A stretch of 54,437 nucleotides of DNA from the NCBI GenBank assembly GCA_038844785.1, contig JAWBRA010000012.1, forward strand, positions 1-54,437. Reading direction: 5' to 3'. This document shows positions 37,231 through 54,092 of this stretch, piece after piece. The position numbers and the translations under genes are program-made. The stretch is from Candidatus Caldarchaeum sp. Its GTDB lineage: Archaea; Thermoproteota; Nitrososphaeria_A; Caldarchaeales; Caldarchaeaceae. The notes beneath the pieces were generated by a model. It saw nothing but the letters and a program-made list of their open reading frames with translations. It was not told the DNA's origin and did no database searches. Within the stretch, counting starts at the first letter, position 1, and each line of letters opens with the position of its first letter.

Positions 37231-37566
37231 ATGGGTAAGCGGAAGATTGTCGCGGAGCCGGATGAGCTAGACCAGATGGTTGAGCCTGGGCCGGGCGATG
37301 TTTACGGCGTTGTTAGCAAGCTGTATGGTTATGACAGGCTGTTGGTTGACTGCGCAGACGGCAAGCAGAGGATATGCAGGATTCGAGGCCAGCTTAAACG
37401 CCGTATATGGATTAAGGAGGGTGACCTTGTTCTTGTTTCTCCATGGGATTTTCAGAGGGACAGCCGCGGCGATGTTTGGTGGCGTTTCACCCACAACCAG
37501 GCTCTAGAGCTTGCTAAGAAAGGCGTTATACCTGATTTTCTTAAGGTAAAGCTTGGAGCATCCTAG
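37231..37566 (+). CDS. eif1a: Translation initiation factor aIF-1A
   Basis: CADGKQRICRIRG.LKRRIWIKEGD.VLVSPWDFQ; ATG at 37231. Confidence 0.95.
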   Translation: MGKRKIVAEPDELDQMVEPGPGDVYGVVSKLYGYDRLLVDCADGKQRICRIRGQLKRRIWIKEGDLVLVSPWDFQRDSRGDVWWRFTHNQALELAKKGVIPDFLKVKLGAS

Positions 37567-39143
37567 TTGACTTCAGTCAGCTTTGTTATCATGCCTATGC
37601 CTTTGGTTTTCCCCTCACGGAAAACAAACCTGTCGCCCGGCTGGACGTAGAACGGCCTATATTTGAAACGCATTTCAACCCTACCTGTCTCCCCAGCCTT
37701 TAGATATGGTTTGTCAAGCATTCTAATCTTAACCGTCGAAGCTATAGTATGGCAGTGGAGAATGGGTTCATAGCCGTCTCCTATACGCGTGGGATGGGAC
37801 AGCACCGTAACCTCAGCCTCAAAACCCCAAACGCTGCGGGGTTTCAACGCTTGGTCGCAGAGAATCATGCCCCGATGAAGCATCTCTTCCCCAGCGCCCT
37901 TAATCGCTATCCCGACTATGTATCCGGGCTGAGCCTCAGTGAGACGTGTGTAATGCATTTCTATGCTTCTCGCCCTGACGGGGACATAGCTTCCTTTCGC
38001 AGTTGGTCCTAGCAGGAGCTCCGACCCTGCCTTCAGCCTTCCCTGCTTGACCGAGCCTGACACCACGCTACCAACTCCTTCAACATTGTAAACTCTGTCG
38101 ATGTAGAGCAGGAACGGCTCGTCAGATCTTTTTTCCCTAACGGGAAGGGAACGCAGCAGAGAATAAACAAGTTCGTACCCCTCCCTGGTCACTGAAGAAG
38201 TCCTTAGGATAGGTACAATCACTGACATTTTGTCCACCACTAGGTTTACGTCATCCTCTGACCTAACTATCATAGGTATGCGGCCAACTCTCTTTAGCAT
38301 CGATGATATCTCGTTCTCAACTTCCTCAACCCGTTCAAGCCTTACTTTATCCGTCTTGGTGATGCAGACAACCACAGGCAACCCCATCGCAAGCATTATG
38401 CCCAAATGCTCTTTAGTTATATGTGTAGGCCCGTCGTCAGCAGCTATGACGAGAAAACCGTAATCAATTTCCTGCCCAAGCAAACCTCTTATCGTTGTTC
38501 TTAGCCAAGGTTCATGCCCTACCGTGTCAACGAAGCTTATCAACTTTTCAGATTCTTTCATGACTCTGATTCTATCGTTTTTGTCTAAAGGGTTTTTGAG
38601 AAAACATGGTTGCTTACCCTTAAACCCTAATACTGCAAAGTGCAGGTCGGCGGATAGGTTTCTTTCAACTTCGTGGGGTAACGTGTCTAGATAAAGCCAT
38701 TTACGCCCGTCATCCTTCTCACCTGTTATTAGACAGGCTAAGAAGGTTGATTTACCGTGGTTGACGTGTCCAGCCACAGAAACTATCACATGGTTCCTGC
38801 TAGGTTCAACGATGGAGGAAATTATGACCCTGGCTATAACGCCGCCATTACTTTCAAACCTTTCAACCTTAACTATGGATGCGTCACACTCGGAAGCCAC
38901 CTTTTTCAATACGCTAAGGCTTTCCTCAAGCTCAATCTCCGTAATACCGGCCGCAGTACCGTCATCCTTTACGCCCAAGATGTATACCGCCGTCCCGCCA
39001 CCCAGTTCAATTCTATGCTTCATCTGACTGGCGAGCTTTTGTCTTTTCTCGTCTCTTAGATGGATTTCGGGAACGAGCTTCTCCTTAAACTCTATGTGCT
39101 GCATCTCCGACCTTGGTATAGTAAACCTACGGCTATCTGCCAC
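37563..39143 (-). CDS. Translational GTPase of the GTPBP1/2 (aGTPBP) family
   Basis: N-terminal IEFK..LASQMK.R...G.G.A.Y.LGV.DDG domain, GHVNHGKST, DTVGHE, TKTD, EF-Tu-like domains II/III, FREGKTKGIG. Confidence 0.9.
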   Translation of the reverse strand: MADSRRFTIPRSEMQHIEFKEKLVPEIHLRDEKRQKLASQMKHRIELGGGTAVYILGVKDDGTAAGITEIELEESLSVLKKVASECDASIVKVERFESNGGVIARVIISSIVEPSRNHVIVSVAGHVNHGKSTFLACLITGEKDDGRKWLYLDTLPHEVERNLSADLHFAVLGFKGKQPCFLKNPLDKNDRIRVMKESEKLISFVDTVGHEPWLRTTIRGLLGQEIDYGFLVIAADDGPTHITKEHLGIMLAMGLPVVVCITKTDKVRLERVEEVENEISSMLKRVGRIPMIVRSEDDVNLVVDKMSVIVPILRTSSVTREGYELVYSLLRSLPVREKRSDEPFLLYIDRVYNVEGVGSVVSGSVKQGRLKAGSELLLGPTAKGSYVPVRARSIEMHYTRLTEAQPGYIVGIAIKGAGEEMLHRGMILCDQALKPRSVWGFEAEVTVLSHPTRIGDGYEPILHCHTIASTVKIRMLDKPYLKAGETGRVEMRFKYRPFYVQPGDRFVFREGKTKGIGMITKLTEVN

Positions 39144-39187: not shown

Positions 39188-39418
39188 CTACCCCATGACT
39201 ATCAGCGAAACAACCGACGTTATGTTTTCGATTTTTTTGATACGCTGGTTAACTACCTGCTTTAACGCATCCATCGAATCAGCCTCAACCTTAACCACAG
39301 TATCATAGACTCCGTAAACACGCTGCGCGTACTTAACTTCCTTAACTGCCTTAAGTGCGTTCAGAACATCCTCCTCCTTTCCCAGTTTCACGTTCAAGAG
39401 TAGAAAAGCTATTGGCAT
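39188..39418 (-). CDS. Stand-alone Lrp/AsnC ligand-binding (RAM) domain
   Basis: AFLLLNVKLG.E..V, VYGVYD.VVKV; no HTH. Confidence 0.88.
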   Translation of the reverse strand: MPIAFLLLNVKLGKEEDVLNALKAVKEVKYAQRVYGVYDTVVKVEADSMDALKQVVNQRIKKIENITSVVSLIVMG

Positions 39419-39617
39419 GGGTCTGTCCCGATAAAATAACCAATGCCGGTATAAAAATACATAACTTTTTAAAAGTTCCAGGTTCTTTCAATACTTTTGA
39501 ACGGCTTGTCTCTCAGATGAACCCCTCCATAACTGTTCTGGGTGTTTAGGACGTCAAGCCAGACAAAGCTCATCCCACAGATTAGAACCATCTACGAGCA
39601 CAGTATACAATCTTCTG

Positions 39618-39797
39618 GAAGGAAAAAATAAGGGGAGAGTTGGCTGGAGGCAACCAACCAGAACAACATCTAAGAACACCCCTAGGAAAGGCTGACCAAT
39701 ATGTTAAGGACCGTATCCTGTAGGATACGGTTATTTTTATACGGGCCGGCCTTTCCATAGGGGTTTTTCCCTGCTGTTCAGGCCGGCGCCTCCAGCC
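39618..39797 (-). ncRNA. Putative structured 3' RNA of IS110/Nop-like element, copy 2
   Basis: 10-bp clamp 39642-39651 / 39788-39797; 8-bp stem 39745-39752 / 39780-39787 with 8+8 internal loop; 9-bp hairpin 39710-39718 / 39723-39731; C/T-rich tail. Overlaps the stop codon at 39778. Confidence 0.65.
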
Positions 39798-40628
39798 TTT
39801 CCCGTTCCTTCACAGTCTTCCAGATTCTCTTTAGCAGTTGTTCTTCGTCCCTTGCTTTGTAGTGAGCGTTGTTTAGAACAGCTGTTGTCAGCCTTGAAAG
39901 CGCGTATCTCGCCGTTTTGCTATAGATTTTATTGACTCCCTGACTTTGAATAATCCGAAGAACTTTCTGAGACATCTGTAAAACCTTGTCCTTTCTATGT
40001 AAGGCATTATCTCTGCCAGGGCCTGCCTTGCAATCAGATAGTTGTCGCCAGTTATTCCAAGCTCCTCCACCACCTTTTTGAAGTATGGGTATCTTTTCTC
40101 TGCCTCAGAGACAATCGACGAAGCCATCTCCATCATAGATTCTTCAACAACCTTCACGGACTTCATGAGAATCATCCTCTCAGCATCCTGCAGGGCCTTA
40201 GCCCTGTTCAGGAAGCTTGCATGCACTCTTTGCGAACTTCGGAAAGCCGTCGTAAGCCGTCGCATAACCAAATAGTCTTCATCAACTTCTCTAAACCACT
40301 TTGGGTCTATAGCCATCATCGTTCTGATGTCATTCCTAGAGGTCTTTGAAAGCCCAAGCTCCTCACGCTTCTCGGCCATCACCGTCATTCTCCGAAGGTA
40401 GAAAACCCTAACACCACGCCTGAGAAGCTCTACAAAGCCATCTGTAAGCTCCACGGGAATAACATCCACGTAGAGCTCGTCAGCGTGCTCTGCTGGAATA
40501 TCGGTTATCCGGCGGACTCGGCTGAAGTTTTCGCCATCGGTGCTGTAAGTGTGGAAGTTCTCCTCAGTTTTCCTGCCACGTTTCTTGCTAGCAAGCCTAT
40601 GTATGTCAGCGAAAAACCTTCCTCCCAC
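39778..40628 (-). mobile_element. Divergent IS110-like RuvC(DEDD)/coiled-coil/Nop-like protein gene, frameshifted (~283 aa if repaired)
   Basis: FADIH, LYVD, KTSRND (D-D-KTxxxD pattern), RRLT..FR coiled coil, LAEIMPY...LRKFFGLF (Transposase_20/Nop-like). Adding one G in the AGGG run at ~39938-39941 joins ORFs 39888-40628 and 39778-39975. Confidence 0.7.
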
Positions 40629-40630
40629 TC

Positions 40631-40661
40631 TCCCGAGAGGTTTATAAGCCTCTTTTCGGGA
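40631..40661. promoter_or_regulatory. Imperfect palindrome centred on a TATA box
   Basis: TCCCGAGAGG-TTTATAAG-CCTCTTTTCGGGA, lying between the IS110-like start codon and the large structured region. Confidence 0.6.
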
Positions 40662-40672
40662 TATCTGTCATC

Positions 40673-41330
40673 TTAACTCCTCCCTCCCTTTTTCAGGAGG
40701 CCTGAGCCTTGTCGGGGGCTGGCGGCCTTCCACACCAGCCTCCGCTCCCCTGTCGTTTTATGCGCCGGGGAGCAGGCTTCAGCCACCTGTAAGCCCGGTG
40801 GCTTGGCTTGGGAGGAGCGGCTCATACCCCTCCCCATGTAGAGGTTGGGGAGGGCGGCCTGTGAGGCCGTGGAAAACCCCCTCAAGCCAAGCCACCAGAC
40901 CGTGGGTGAGGGTATATCTTCGGAAGCCTCTGAACGTTATCCTGCGTCTTCGTGTCTCCAACATCCATCCACAAACCCTCTCAAACACCCCCATGGTGTC
41001 TGAGAAACATAAGTGGAATGGATGTGGAGAACGTCGTCCAGCATTGTCCAGACAGCCTTCATACGTCGTCTGTCTCCCTACCGCACGTCCGCCAACCCAG
41101 TGGCCGCGCCAAGGCCCAGTTTCCAGCCAAACCCTCCCCCGCCACCCCACAGCATTTAGAAAGGGGTGGCCGCCTTCTACGGCGGGTTGGGTGAGGGTTT
41201 GTTTTTGGCGGAGTTTTCCTATGCGTGTTCGCGGGGACGACTCTATGTTTTCACACCCCCTCACGCCTGGAGGGGATGGCCTCAGGGCTTCATCACGGGA
41301 CAATCGCCCCGCTCATTACATGGTTGTTCA
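40673..41330. ncRNA. Candidate large structured non-coding RNA (strand unresolved)
   Basis: GC-rich, with no protein-like ORF. Many helices: 40797-40810/40883-40896 (14 bp perfect), 40828-36/40846-54, 40744-50/40767-73, 40961-68/41018-25, 41088-95/41205-12. Confidence 0.55.
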
Positions 41331-41471
41331 ACCCACATGGATTTAAGCAGATAGGTGGTGTTGTCTGTAGCGTCCGGACAACGCTTTAAACATACCCGAT
41401 AAAGGAGATTACATAGGTGTTGTTAGGGGAGATATAACATTATAGCGGGATGGAGGCTGAGAACACCAAAC

Positions 41472-41696
41472 ATGTATAAGCCGTTGTTCTATTTAGAGGC
41501 TAACGACGGGAGAGAGGTTAGAATAGCCTTATGGGTTGAGGACGGAACACCACATTTCAGCTATATGGAATATGAGGAGCCTCTGTTTATTCCTTCAGGC
41601 AGTCAGCCACAATATGATAAGGGAGAATGGTATTGTAGAAAATGCCGTCAAACATTCAAAAACAGGGATAAACGCCCAACCGCAACAGAACATTAA
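41472..41696 (+). CDS. Small hypothetical protein with C-terminal CxxC (WYCRKC); possibly a degraded gene
   Basis: 74-aa ORF; homologous remnants at 3094-3150 and 2920-2963 show it belongs to a repeated family. Confidence 0.55.
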   Translation: MYKPLFYLEANDGREVRIALWVEDGTPHFSYMEYEEPLFIPSGSQPQYDKGEWYCRKCRQTFKNRDKRPTATEH

Positions 41697-41883
41697 GGAA
41701 AAAACCAAGAAGAAAGAAATACAAACCAACCATCCAATATTATGGTTAAGCGGTCGCTCCAATAGGCTGAGCTATGTGTTTCTCGTCCTCTATGCCTTTG
41801 GGTTTGAAGCCGTCTTAACACCTGAAACCTCTCTGCGGGGCCTAACAGCCTGTTCTTAAGCCGCCCTAAAATATGTTAAAGGC

Positions 41884-42246
41884 TTATCCTAATCTGTATC
41901 CGCAGAAAAAGCATACAGCCGCTCCAACCTCGTTTAAGGCGTGGCAGCTGGGGCAGTGGAAAGACGTTACAAGCCTAAGCTCCTCCCGTTTTCGCGGTTT
42001 TTCTTCACCTACTGAAGGCATGCAAACCAGAGTCTCAACCTTTACGACGTTGGGAAGCTTTCCAACAGCCTCGTAGACCTTGTGTGAAAGGTCTTTTAAA
42101 CTGTCTGCCGTCATCACCAACACAGCATCGTAGCGTCCGAACACGCTGTGAGCCATCATCACGCCCGGCAGGCTTCGTGAAGCAACAACCTGATCAGAAG
42201 TGCCTGGCAGGGTTTGGACAAGAACGTAGGCAATTAATTTAGTCAT
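41884..42246 (-). CDS. Lrp/AsnC ligand-binding domain plus zinc ribbon
   Basis: AYVLVQT.PG, SVFGRYDAV, then CPSCH...VCFFCG. Confidence 0.85.
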   Translation of the reverse strand: MTKLIAYVLVQTLPGTSDQVVASRSLPGVMMAHSVFGRYDAVLVMTADSLKDLSHKVYEAVGKLPNVVKVETLVCMPSVGEEKPRKREELRLVTSFHCPSCHALNEVGAAVCFFCGYRLG

Positions 42247-42497
42247 CTACCATCCTCGCTGAAGAGAACTATGCATGTTTCGGTTCTTACAACGTTTGGT
42301 ATCTTTTCTATGACTTTGTATATGAGCCTCGAGAGCTCAGCCAAGTCGGATACCTCAACCGTTATGATTGCATCGTATCGTCCGAACACGGAGTCAGCTG
42401 CAACAACACCCTGTACGCTTCTAGCCTCCCTGAGGTAAGCTGTAACCTCCTCAGATGTTCCAGGCTTGGTGGAGACGAGGACGTATGCCTTGACCAT
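42243..42497 (-). CDS. Stand-alone Lrp/AsnC ligand-binding domain
   Basis: AYVLVSTKPG, SVFGRYDAI, VVRTET. Confidence 0.88.
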   Translation of the reverse strand: MVKAYVLVSTKPGTSEEVTAYLREARSVQGVVAADSVFGRYDAIITVEVSDLAELSRLIYKVIEKIPNVVRTETCIVLFSEDGR

Positions 42498-54018: not shown

Positions 54019-54092
54019 GCCGGGGTAGCTCAGCCTGGTAGAGCGGCGGGCTGTTAACCCGTCGGTCGCCCGTTCAAATCGGGCCCCCGGCG
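54019..54092 (+). tRNA. tRNA-Asn(GTT)
   Basis: Acceptor GCCGGGG/CCCCGGC, D arm TAGCTCAGCCTGGTAGAGC, anticodon loop CTGTTAA (GTT at 54053-54055), T arm GTTCAAATC; no encoded CCA and no intron. Confidence 0.96.

Follow-up and report, generated by a model that had tools for sequence, protein, structure and literature searches.

According to the available sections of the description of bridge-RNA targeting (PMC11208160), one side of an internal loop pairs with the bottom-left target strand and the other with the top-right one, with an overlap at the core. A common ancestry of IS110 recombinases, Tas proteins, and Nop5 has been proposed (Vaysset et al., Faure et al., accessible parts), and the portion of Vaysset et al. 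at hand places the origin of Nop5 early in archaea, from an IS110-like ancestor and possibly in an unsampled archaeal lineage. TIGR loci have been described from phages, from parasitic bacteria, and from some archaea or their viruses, and the accessible reports do not describe them as insertion sequences. Mining for bridge RNAs starts from the PF01548 plus PF02371 architecture (2026 language-model preprint, available excerpts) and mining for TIGR systems from arrays; the family of ~285-aa proteins described here, p285, has neither and would thus be missed by such screens. In the accessible parts of the literature searched, this family is not described, and among the matches listed none combined Caldarchaeales with IS110, TasR, or bridge RNA; such proteins may figure among the structure-mined IS110-like or Nop-domain hits in the supplements to Durrant et al., Vaysset et al., and Faure et al.

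We analyzed a window of 54,437 nucleotides from Candidatus Caldarchaeum sp. (contig JAWBRA010000012.1; order Caldarchaeales), a hot-spring archaeon and the host of a mobile element inserted at 39460-41867 (2,408 bp; unstranded). The insertion is flanked on both sides by a 6-bp direct repeat, AAAATA (39454-39459 and 41868-41873), and is one of multiple copies. Two related genomes lack it: their empty sites (G007:C3, with 95% identical flanks, and G004:C1, with 81-83%) join position 39459 straight to 41868 or 41859. Metagenome unitigs show a single copy of the sequence through 39604 and again from 41786 on, with multiple copies of the part between; the four DNA runs, which yielded short unitigs only, gave no contig joining across the element, and none of the metagenome pieces listed spans the GC-rich stretch discussed below. 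The host genome itself contains 25 p285 protein matches (32 with the family profile), and many element copies sit at contig ends. The element bears two divergent genes, p285 on the minus strand and p74 on the plus strand. The latter, a 74-aa ORF (41472-41696) with no family match, belongs to the right part of the element (41384-41775, plus strand), along with a conserved 88-nt block and a multi-copy right-end block; the genome has about 40 copies of this part, many of them without p285. Of 22 right ends scanned with ARAGORN, none has an intact tRNA; by eye, the right flanks of four copies look tRNA-like.

The p285 gene (39778-40672, minus strand) is broken in this copy into a 246-aa ORF (39888-40628) and a 65-aa ORF (39778-39975). 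Its start codon, an ATG at 40672-40670 preceded by GGAGG, lies in the +1 frame when compared with the ORF. The AlphaFold2 model of the intact C14 copy (pLDDT 91, pTM 0.85) has TasR as its best structural match (9mty_A; Foldseek E 5e-7, VIA Z 15.8, 246 residues aligned, rmsd 3.7), with ISCro4 at VIA Z 14.8 and IS621 at VIA Z 14.4-14.5 over residues 1-283. Alignments to IS621, ISCro4, and TasR start at model residue 1-3, and TasH aligns to residues 116-281 only (Z 12-13). From this model, the ~285-aa protein is predicted to share with TasR and IS110 recombinases a fold of RuvC, coiled-coil, and Nop/Tnp parts, in line with an earlier note, made from the sequence alone, that had called the gene IS110-like. 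D8, D31, D50, D55, and D100 are invariant in 46 sequences, and fold and invariant Asp together identify the N-terminal RuvC-like DEDD domain of IS110. We assume a residue-by-residue equivalence between the acidic residues of p285 and D11, E60, D102, and D105 of IS621, and loop 224-238 of p285 is presumably shorter than in IS621. No Ser is conserved in the 46-sequence alignment (the best column, S216, reaches 65%), and the nucleophile may be a residue other than Ser. Pfam returned no family for the intact 285-aa copy (E up to 10) or the broken copy (E up to 0.01), and no precomputed Pfam domains were recorded among the 120 homologues listed; PF01548, present in 6 of 14 control genomes, had no match in the whole host genome. 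The family profile gave chance matches only against PDB chains (best E 0.008, release factor 2), and the best NCBIfam match, to RNase HII (E 0.029), was far below the cut-off.

Downstream of p285, its 3' UTR contains a putative RNA that resembles the target-binding module of a bridge RNA (39620-39775, minus strand). It comprises an outer stem (39685-39697/39747-39756), a 3' loop side (39698-39709), an inner hairpin (39710-39731), and a 5' loop side (39732-39746), and has at its 3' end a small hairpin followed by a U-run (39620-39628). Pairing holds in 96.6% of cells across 19 distinct copies (vs 43-60% in slid controls), with 5 compensatory pairs, and the loop columns are hypervariable; the local folding z is -6.8/-7.5. 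To the left of the insertion point, the top strand is identical to one loop side; to the right, it is complementary to the other. The two loop sides thus cover both halves of the empty target (GCCGGTATAAAAATATGTTAAAGG), with their matches overlapping at the core. For the copy in the window, the 5' loop scored 11.5 (reached in 2 of 5000 shuffles) and the 3' loop 10 (2-5 of 5000), and both together were reached in 0 of 5000; the loops of the 18 other copies summed to at most 13 on this target, vs 21.5. The C37 copy, set against the empty site in G007:C13, scored 9 + 9 (both together in 1 of 5000 shuffles); the loops of other copies summed to at most 11.5 there, vs 18. [quoted passage not shown] In a blind loop-to-flank scan of the 19 copies, most of them without located junctions, the 5' loop beat unrelated loops in three (the window copy, C37, and G004:C50, the last at 858), tied in one (C36), and lost in 15, and in the right flank of the window copy the best place for the 3' loop was an unrelated p74 site (10.5), above the junction match (10). 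A third empty site was sought for the G004:C50 copy and no empty relative was found; the only close match to its flank was the genome's own contig C46 (99% identical), with an element within ~700 nt.

Taken together, these features place the element closest to the IS1111 group of the IS110 family, with which it shares the RuvC, coiled-coil, and C-terminal helical fold of the recombinase, a guide RNA downstream of the gene whose loop sides pair with the bottom-left and top-right target strands with core overlap (as in the available sections of PMC11208160), a long subterminal inverted repeat without terminal inverted repeats, and a multi-copy, site-specific distribution. It differs from the IS110 family in lacking any PF01548 or PF02371 match even at E 10, in having no conserved catalytic Ser although the C-terminal fold aligns, in a 6-bp junction repeat where the family has a 2-nt core, in its second small gene and long, variable GC-rich upstream end, and in its host, an archaeon of the Caldarchaeales; p285 is also about 40 residues shorter than IS621, and a donor-binding loop was sought here and none identified. 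TIGR-TasR provides the best whole-protein structural match, and the two share conserved acidic RuvC residues, the absence from conserved columns of the serine-bearing part of IS110 recombinases, and the general design of a Nop-domain effector with an N-terminal RuvC. However, p285 has no tandem array beside it, only a single stem-internal loop unit in its 3' UTR, and its locus behaves like a transposable element, with empty sites. The C-terminal half also aligns to Nop5 and Nop56/58 of box C/D RNPs (3pla_A, Z 6.8; SSU-processome chains, Z 8-9); unlike in archaeal box C/D sRNPs, the tight box C/box D pair is not conserved here, no K-turn is established, and the RuvC residues are conserved, whereas the equivalent Nop5 domain is inactive (Vaysset et al., Faure et al., accessible parts). 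A fold closest to TasR and no conserved Ser, yet precise insertions with a 6-bp repeat, raise a question about the chemistry of p285, which at about 285 aa is a compact, thermostable candidate for programmable DNA insertion.

On the opposite side of the gene from the target-matching loop (39685-39756, minus strand), a GC-rich stretch starts directly upstream of the p285 ATG and Shine-Dalgarno sequence, with a GC content of 0.575-0.665 across 40600-41299 vs about 0.40-0.55 in the flanks. The earlier note had described 40673-41330 as a hairpin-dense, GC-rich non-coding region, a description that proved largely real across 40673-41383. The motifs it quoted were all found at, or within 1 nt of, the positions it gave: a TATA-like box for the plus strand (TTTATAAG, 40641-40648), CCTGAG (40701-40706), TCCGCCAA (41088-41095), TTGGCGGA (41205-41212), CTCAGG (41281-41286), a box C/D segment (TCAGGGCTTCATCAC, 41282-41296), and ATTTAA (41341-41346). 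A repeat search likewise recovered its long helix, with 19-nt arms at 40797-40815 and 40878-40896 that are 89% complementary. In the possible pairing of the ends by CCTGAG and CTCAGG, the first hexamer varies among copies (CCTAAG, CCTGGG, CCTAGC). The minimum free energy of the stretch as a whole was -297.4 kcal/mol on the plus strand (z -5.4) and -329.4 on the minus strand (z -8.4), and 0 of 20 shuffles folded as well. The claim that nearly the whole stretch folds was too broad: in 150-nt segments compared with 60 dinucleotide shuffles, only 40675-40899 (z -3.5 to -5.6), 40900-41049 (-3.5/-5.3), and 41125-41274 (-2.6/-3.7) stand out, and z lies between +0.5 and -1.7 in 40825-40974, 40975-41199, and 41200-41349. 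A hairpin reported at 40955-41030 is present, but other copies have a larger domain of three hairpins there, from which the version in this copy derives by deletion.

As for the nature of this stretch, the proposal of a large ncRNA stands insofar as the region is non-coding and structured, yet it is part of the mobile element of the neighboring gene and not a free-standing RNA gene. The overlapping ORFs (182 aa on the plus strand, 174 aa on the minus strand) are indeed not protein-like: their best Pfam E is 0.28, and protein coding was rejected since neither has a family match and copies carry 1-2-nt indels relative to both. No Rfam family reached its gathering score in the stretch; with E up to 10, 40400-41600 gave five weak matches (E 0.45-6.9; 13-21 bits vs gathering scores of 40-197), and the sole match over the whole window was a tRNA at 54019-54092. 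RNase P, SRP, group I/II introns, and C/D sRNAs were rejected for want of an Rfam match. The suggested extended guide array was not borne out, as Tandem Repeats Finder detected none in 39400-41900 (only two 19-nt chance rows); a hairpin motif with a TCCAT loop occurs once or twice per copy. Nor is the proposed box C/box D pair (GTGATGA-AGCC-CTGA) conserved: it occurs in 1 of 10 aligned copies, the other nine having 1-6 extra bases in its middle, and the argument for a K-turn therefore fails. The pattern TGATGA-N2-10-CTGA is not enriched either (3 in the window vs 0.86 expected, a count reached in 5 of 100 shuffles), and a box C/D K-turn was rejected. Before the first hairpin there is a box-C-like RU[G/A]AUGA, of which five of the 10 copies have the form TGATGA and five the form TAATGA; CCUGAGGCC is kept in 10 of 10, with no terminal stem joining the two. 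A promoter/terminator scan, which covered bacterial-type consensus sequences only, gave chance-level results.

Comparison among copies resolves the stretch into modules. Module B (40690-40910, minus strand; z -3.5 to -5.6) has the long helix 40797-40815/40878-40896 around two hairpins, and module hp (40945-41040, minus strand) an 18-bp outer stem, an internal loop, and an inner hairpin. In the window, hp arose by deletion between two repeated hairpins, and with the gene frameshifted and the hp module deleted, this copy is decaying. A conserved core (41108-41200, unstranded) forms a three-way junction of a closing helix P0 (41129-41140/41189-41201), H1 (41142-41148/41163-41169, with a variable 12-18-nt loop), and H2 (41170-41174/41181-41185). 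Over 30 core sequences (28 distinct), 99.1% of cells pair vs 94.2% in shuffles (0 of 500 reach this), 4 pairs have changed on both sides, and pairing in slid controls does not exceed 51%; P0 beats shuffled flanks (z < -2) in 15 of 27 copies on the plus strand or 17 of 27 on the minus strand. A model of the core (R1) found it in 16 of 76 genomes of the order, and p285 is also present in 13 of the 14 genomes with a strong match (E < 1e-10). In 9 genomes the core adjoins a p285 gene, the identity of these genes ranging from 28 to 100%; applied to a further 16 loci with p285, the model gave weak matches only (best E 0.0024). Module D (41210-41383, minus strand) includes a TATA-like box (TTAAAT, 41346-41341), a hairpin CGGGRC-GATN-GTCCCG, and CCTGAGGCC; its local folding is not significant (z +0.5/-1.4), and CCTGAGGCC is kept in 10 of 10 aligned copies. 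The complete genome G009 has 2 core matches vs 9 p285 matches, and one of its eight p285 upstream regions examined is GC-rich.

We consider it probable that a 2.4-kb Caldarchaeales insertion element, working like an IS110/IS1111 bridge-RNA insertion sequence, has in this stretch its non-coding 5' (upstream) end. Judged from sequence comparison, the stretch would be transcribed with p285 from the minus strand as a long structured leader in which modules B and hp would be real RNA helices. In the core, the subterminal repeat would recur in inverted form with two hairpins after it, and the core may serve in recognition of the element's own end (donor) or in expression control, acting as RNA or as a DNA subterminal inverted repeat, with presumably no role in target choice. 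Counting against a needed leader, four copies (C56, C11, C2, and C24) keep the layout with only about 78 bp at the position of the GC-rich insert, although the genes of all four are broken; the scarcity of core matches and GC-rich upstream regions in G009 also counts against it. An unlikely, yet serious, alternative is that the stretch is functionless mosaic DNA, accumulated between the two divergent genes from nested-insertion debris, end remnants, and internal recombination, which would look structured because element ends are palindromic. This is consistent with its length (about 78 bp to about 1.9 kb among copies), its mosaic module content, the deletion origin of hp in this copy, a solo fragment in contig C27 with no p285 nearby, and the many variants with short internal skips in the metagenome. 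Left-end-like sequences also lie inside the stretch, and some copies have a fuller left-end-like remnant right after the core, which fits debris of nested insertions, while the insert of the C9 copy is 92% identical where its protein is only 30% identical, pointing to module shuffling. Functionless DNA would not, however, readily account for the compensatory changes that keep H1 and H2 paired across two taxonomic families, for changes in the long helix of module B that stay paired on one strand only (C.A on the plus strand, G.U on the minus strand, 8 copies), or for a TATA-like box kept in all 10 copies of module D (GCTTA[A/T]ATCC in 10 of 10). Order and orientation relative to p285 are also kept in the copies listed, with the exception of the second G009 core (L049), 1.9 kb from a p285 gene and in opposite orientation.

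Other readings concern how the stretch would act and on which strand. It is improbable, in our estimate, that it is purely a cis-regulatory 5' leader controlling p285 translation or recoding, and hence the transposition rate, with no role in DNA recognition. Such a leader would end as this one does, at a strong GGAGG and ATG, and the minus strand has no T5 run across the stretch; the +1-frame ATG in 7 of the 13 copies listed suggests regulated recoding. Yet in copies C24 and C11 the ATG is in frame and the spacer short, 450 nt separate the start codon from the core, where conservation is highest, and no known regulatory RNA family in Rfam matches. A 16-19-nt leader segment (GGGGGAGGGUUUGGCUGG) complementary to the 3' tail of the mRNA (CCAGCCAA(A)C(C)CUCCCC) also favors regulation, and the same duplex, which co-varies between lineages, would be central to a bolder idea, which we regard as doubtful but somewhat less so than pure regulation: a bridge RNA split into two annealed pieces, with the target loop in the 3' UTR and a second module in the leader (the core, with hp as a possible donor loop), serving a serine-less RuvC-Nop protein. 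The system would then connect IS110 transposons, TIGR-Tas nucleases, and box C/D RNPs as an intermediate form in archaea, and its transposition chemistry would differ from that of IS621. Least probable of all is a functional plus-strand transcript, antisense to the leader, starting near 40670 from TTTATAAG, as the earlier note had proposed, and ending at a T-run at 41202-41206. The TATA-like box TTTATAAG belongs to a block of 50 nt whose identity is 83-89% even among copies with proteins only about 30% identical, the core has 6 wobble cells on the plus strand vs 2 on the minus strand, and the T5 run follows the core closing helix on the plus strand. In four copies, however, the box reads TTCATAA, and it sits within conserved N-terminal codons (AYKPL); about 25 nt into the transcript, a T5 run at 40692-40696 would bring it to a stop. 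Wobble cells in common pairs of modules B and hp favor the minus strand (23 vs 4; for hp, 4 vs 1, and 14 vs 2 in its long form), and consensus folding energy is lower on this strand in all four modules with more than one sequence.

Under the favored reading of an upstream end of a bridge-RNA-like element, the GC-rich stretch is where to seek the missing donor-recognition or regulatory part. A subterminal repeat (GGGGAGAGTTGGCTGGAGG, 39632-39650, unstranded) has an inverted copy at 41122-41140, and the run common to the two is 19 nt in the C14 copy. Lineages of the G008 and G009 type have the variant TGGTTGGCTGGC at both places. One strand of the core reproduces the subterminal repeat in inverted form, and the two co-vary between lineages. 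A search for a donor-binding loop, comparing the element ends and circle junction with the interior, gave 8-9-nt exact matches only, at chance level (9 nt was reached in 37 of 300 shuffles). By eye, hp loops show near-matches to 41773-41786 and to the junction. The 16-19-nt inverted repeat copy in the core is a donor-recognition candidate of a different form.

Judged from sequence comparison, the GC-rich stretch at 40673–41383 forms the 5′ non-coding end, long, modular, and conserved in part, of a bridge-RNA-type insertion element in an archaeon. An earlier note, mostly right in its observation, had proposed a large ncRNA here; the stretch is neither an independent RNA gene nor a guide array. 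We found no description of this element family in the literature searched. The whole block is absent from two related genomes, G007:C3 (95% flank identity) and G004:C1, and because these empty sites join window position 39459 directly to the right flank (41868 or 41859), the insertion spans 39460–41867. AAAATA stands on either side of it, and metagenome unitigs are single-copy up to 39604 and again from 41786 on. Segment 40629–41471 matches 41 places in the window's own genome (1.74 Mb), many of them at contig ends. A module census of the element unit comprised a left block (39617–39700), the ~285-aa gene p285 (minus strand), a conserved 50-nt block (40610–40660), an 88-nt block (41384–41471), the 74-aa ORF p74 (plus strand), and a right block (41697–41775), along with a variable spacer between the 50-nt and 88-nt blocks, which in four copies is just ~78 bp long but elsewhere extends to as much as ~1.9 kb. 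The window's GC-rich modules B (40690–40910), hp (40945–41040), core (41108–41200), and D (41210–41383) are present in around ten copies.

The neighboring p285 gene had been correctly called IS110-like. Sequence searches of Pfam, NCBIfam, and PDB returned no match to p285, and the 120 homologues listed of 160 were unnamed or hypothetical proteins of Caldarchaeum and Nitrososphaerota, none with a precomputed Pfam domain. With an AlphaFold2 model built from 46 sequences (pLDDT 91, pTM 0.85), Foldseek placed TIGR-TasR at the top (E 5e-7), followed by the ISCro4 and IS621 bridge recombinases (E 5e-6 to 6e-5); VIA-align Z scores over nearly the whole chain were 15.8, 14.8, and 14.4–14.5, respectively, whereas TasH and Nop5/Nop56/58 matched the C-terminal half only. 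Five aspartates of the N-terminal domain are invariant, and no conserved serine was found (no Ser column >65%). By family profile, p285 was detected in 32 genomes out of 76 from the order, at between 0 and at least 32 matches each, a patchy distribution typical of insertion sequences. Broken in the window copy into ORFs of 246 and 65 aa, the gene encodes 285–300 aa in intact copies.

On the minus strand at 40640–40690, an ATG following a strong GGAGG lies in the +1 frame relative to the p285 ORF, overlaps an in-frame TGA (ATGA), and opens a frame that stops after 9 codons, while the conserved N-terminal RKEAYKPLGR lies upstream of any in-frame start codon. Seven of the 13 copies listed, among which the C20 entry is probably an unrelated match, have this layout, and it suggests +1 recoding at CCG-AAA-AGA. 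A 288-aa p285 subfamily with an in-frame ATG start occurs in the complete genome G009 (C1:129900–133500); its upstream region is AT-richer, and a divergent 136-aa ORF replaces p74.

Since no part of the element is better conserved or folds better than the 3′ UTR of p285 (z −6.8/−7.5), we followed this UTR in 19 distinct copies from several genomes, read on the gene strand. Each is built from an outer stem of 11 bp, an internal loop with two sides of ~12–15 nt, an inner hairpin of 8 bp, a linker that is conserved, and then a small hairpin and a U-run. In the stems, which are almost invariant, 96.6% of cells pair, against 43–60% with slid partners, and five pairs show changes in both partners; nowhere is the alignment more variable than in the loop columns. 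In the window copy, the 5′ loop side is CCCGUAUAAAAAUA and the top strand left of the insertion point is GCCGGTATAAAAATA, while the 3′ loop side, once reverse-complemented, gives AATATGTTAA, identical to the final four bases of the repeat followed by the right flank TGTTAA. At the insertion point these matches share 4 nt. Among 5000 loop shuffles, the 5′ score was reached twice, the 3′ score 2–5 times, and both together never; loops of the 18 other copies scored ≤13 in sum against this target, versus 21.5 for the window's own. A second, independent copy on contig C37 has different loops, and its empty site (G007:C13) reads AGCTGTAAATAAGCCTT, in which AGCTGTAAA is identical to this copy's 5′ loop side and ATAAGCCTT to its 3′ loop side after reverse complementation (both scores together in 1 of 5000 shuffles; other copies ≤11.5 versus 18). 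These loops match the published rule for a bridge-RNA target-binding loop, both matches including the core, and a guide downstream of the gene is the arrangement of the IS1111 group (PMC11208160). Against this reading, a blind scan of 700-nt left flanks in the 19 copies ranked the own loop above unrelated ones in only three and tied in one, the rest being scored without a mapped junction; a third empty site was sought and none found. The element's predicted target guide was found in this 3′ UTR RNA, outside the GC-rich stretch, which the earlier note had considered a possible guide array.

Much of what that note saw in the stretch itself held up. Its quoted motifs lie in place or ≤1 nt off, the long helix is real (19-nt arms at 40797–40815 and 40878–40896, 89% complementary), GC is 0.575–0.665 in 40600–41299 against ~0.40–0.55 around, no Rfam family reached threshold, and the overlapping ORFs are not protein-like, with no family match and frames broken by 1–2-nt indels between copies. 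Its claim that nearly everything folds stood for the stretch as a whole (z −5.4 on the plus and −8.4 on the minus strand, from 20 dinucleotide shuffles only) but not throughout: in 150-nt windows with 60 shuffles, signal was confined to 40675–40899, 40900–41049, and, more weakly, 41125–41274, with nothing notable in 40825–40974, 40975–41199, or 41200–41349. The only part conserved beyond the genus is the core, consisting of a closing helix (P0) and two hairpins (H1 and H2) in a three-way junction. In H1 and H2, 99.1% of cells pair versus 94.2% in shuffles (reached by 0 of 500), with four pairs changed on both sides (3 of 500 shuffles) and slid controls at ≤51%; P0 is supported in 15–17 of 27 copies. 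A covariance model detected the core in 16 genomes out of 76 from the order, the window's own genome holding 9 copies; 13 of 14 genomes with a match at E < 1e-10 also carry p285, and the p285 genes downstream are 28–100% identical among themselves. The core 5′ strand, (CT)CCAGCCAAACCCTCCCC, recurs in reverse-complement form as the subterminal GGGGAG(A/G)GTT(T)GGCTGG(AG) at 39632–39650. This shared run reaches 19 nt in the C14 copy, and the G008/G009 lineages have TGGTTGGCTGGC at both places. As DNA, the pair resembles the subterminal inverted repeats of IS1111 elements, given as 7–17 bp (PMC11208160); as RNA, it would allow base pairing between the leader and the guide RNA's 3′ tail.

The stretch begins right upstream of the GGAGG and ATG (40672) and would therefore be the 5′ leader of p285 if transcribed from the minus strand. 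For each of the four multi-sequence modules, the consensus fold has the lower energy on the minus strand, and wobble cells, counted over pairs predicted on both strands, run 5/1 (minus/plus) in module B, 4/1 in hp, and 14/2 in the long hp, with module D tied at 3/3 and the core reversed at 2/6. In the long helix of module B, plus-strand C.A corresponds to minus-strand G.U in five copies. Two T5 runs lie on the plus strand (40692–40696 and 41202–41206), and none on the minus strand across the stretch. The full hp form (480–660 of the C46 locus, two loci in G040, and one on C27) has three hairpins sharing one pentaloop, TCCAT on the plus strand and AUGGA on the gene strand.

We consider most probable that the stretch is a structured leader of p285 with a part in recognition of the element's own end or in expression. 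Mosaic debris comes second, and several observations speak against a function: four copies, whose genes are all broken, lack the insert, as do most of the p285 loci in the complete genome G009; it is 92% identical between copies whose proteins share 30% identity; a fuller left-end-like remnant directly follows the core in several copies; an insert fragment occurs solo once; and the window hp hairpin is a deletion product. Also speaking against a function, module D folds no better than shuffles, sequence alone gives no orientation to its TATA-like box, which all 10 copies of 10 retain, and the box C/D pair of the earlier note proved specific to the window copy. A purely regulatory leader ranks third, ahead of plus-strand RNA as the fourth and least likely reading.

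The block at 41384–41775 with p74 (a CxxC motif, no family match) occurs ~40 times in the genome, often without p285, and short derivatives consist of the left block and p74 block alone (C2:48489–48807, C55:2415–2727). The outermost parts of the insertion, 39455–39531 and 41774–41873, are themselves repeats in far fewer copies than the inner blocks (C35:13095–13171; C23:26281–26381 with C38:64–127, 92–93% identity). At 4 of 22 right ends (window 41745–41775, C2:83067, C8:402, C23:26544), sequence past the right block resembles a tRNA 5′ half (D-arm, anticodon stem) in reverse-complement orientation, and ARAGORN found no intact tRNA there. Three copies of tRNA-Gln(CTG) in G000 (C26:20628–20701, C33:14604–14677, C35:13246–13319) each lie 120–260 nt outside the left block of one element subfamily. 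Either this subfamily carries or targets the tRNA gene, or the three contigs represent strain variants of a single locus. The host genes flanking the insertion (37563–39143, 39188–39418, 41884–42497) encode an N-terminally extended, EF-Tu-like GTPase and three small proteins with an Lrp/AsnC ligand-binding domain, among them one that has a zinc ribbon.
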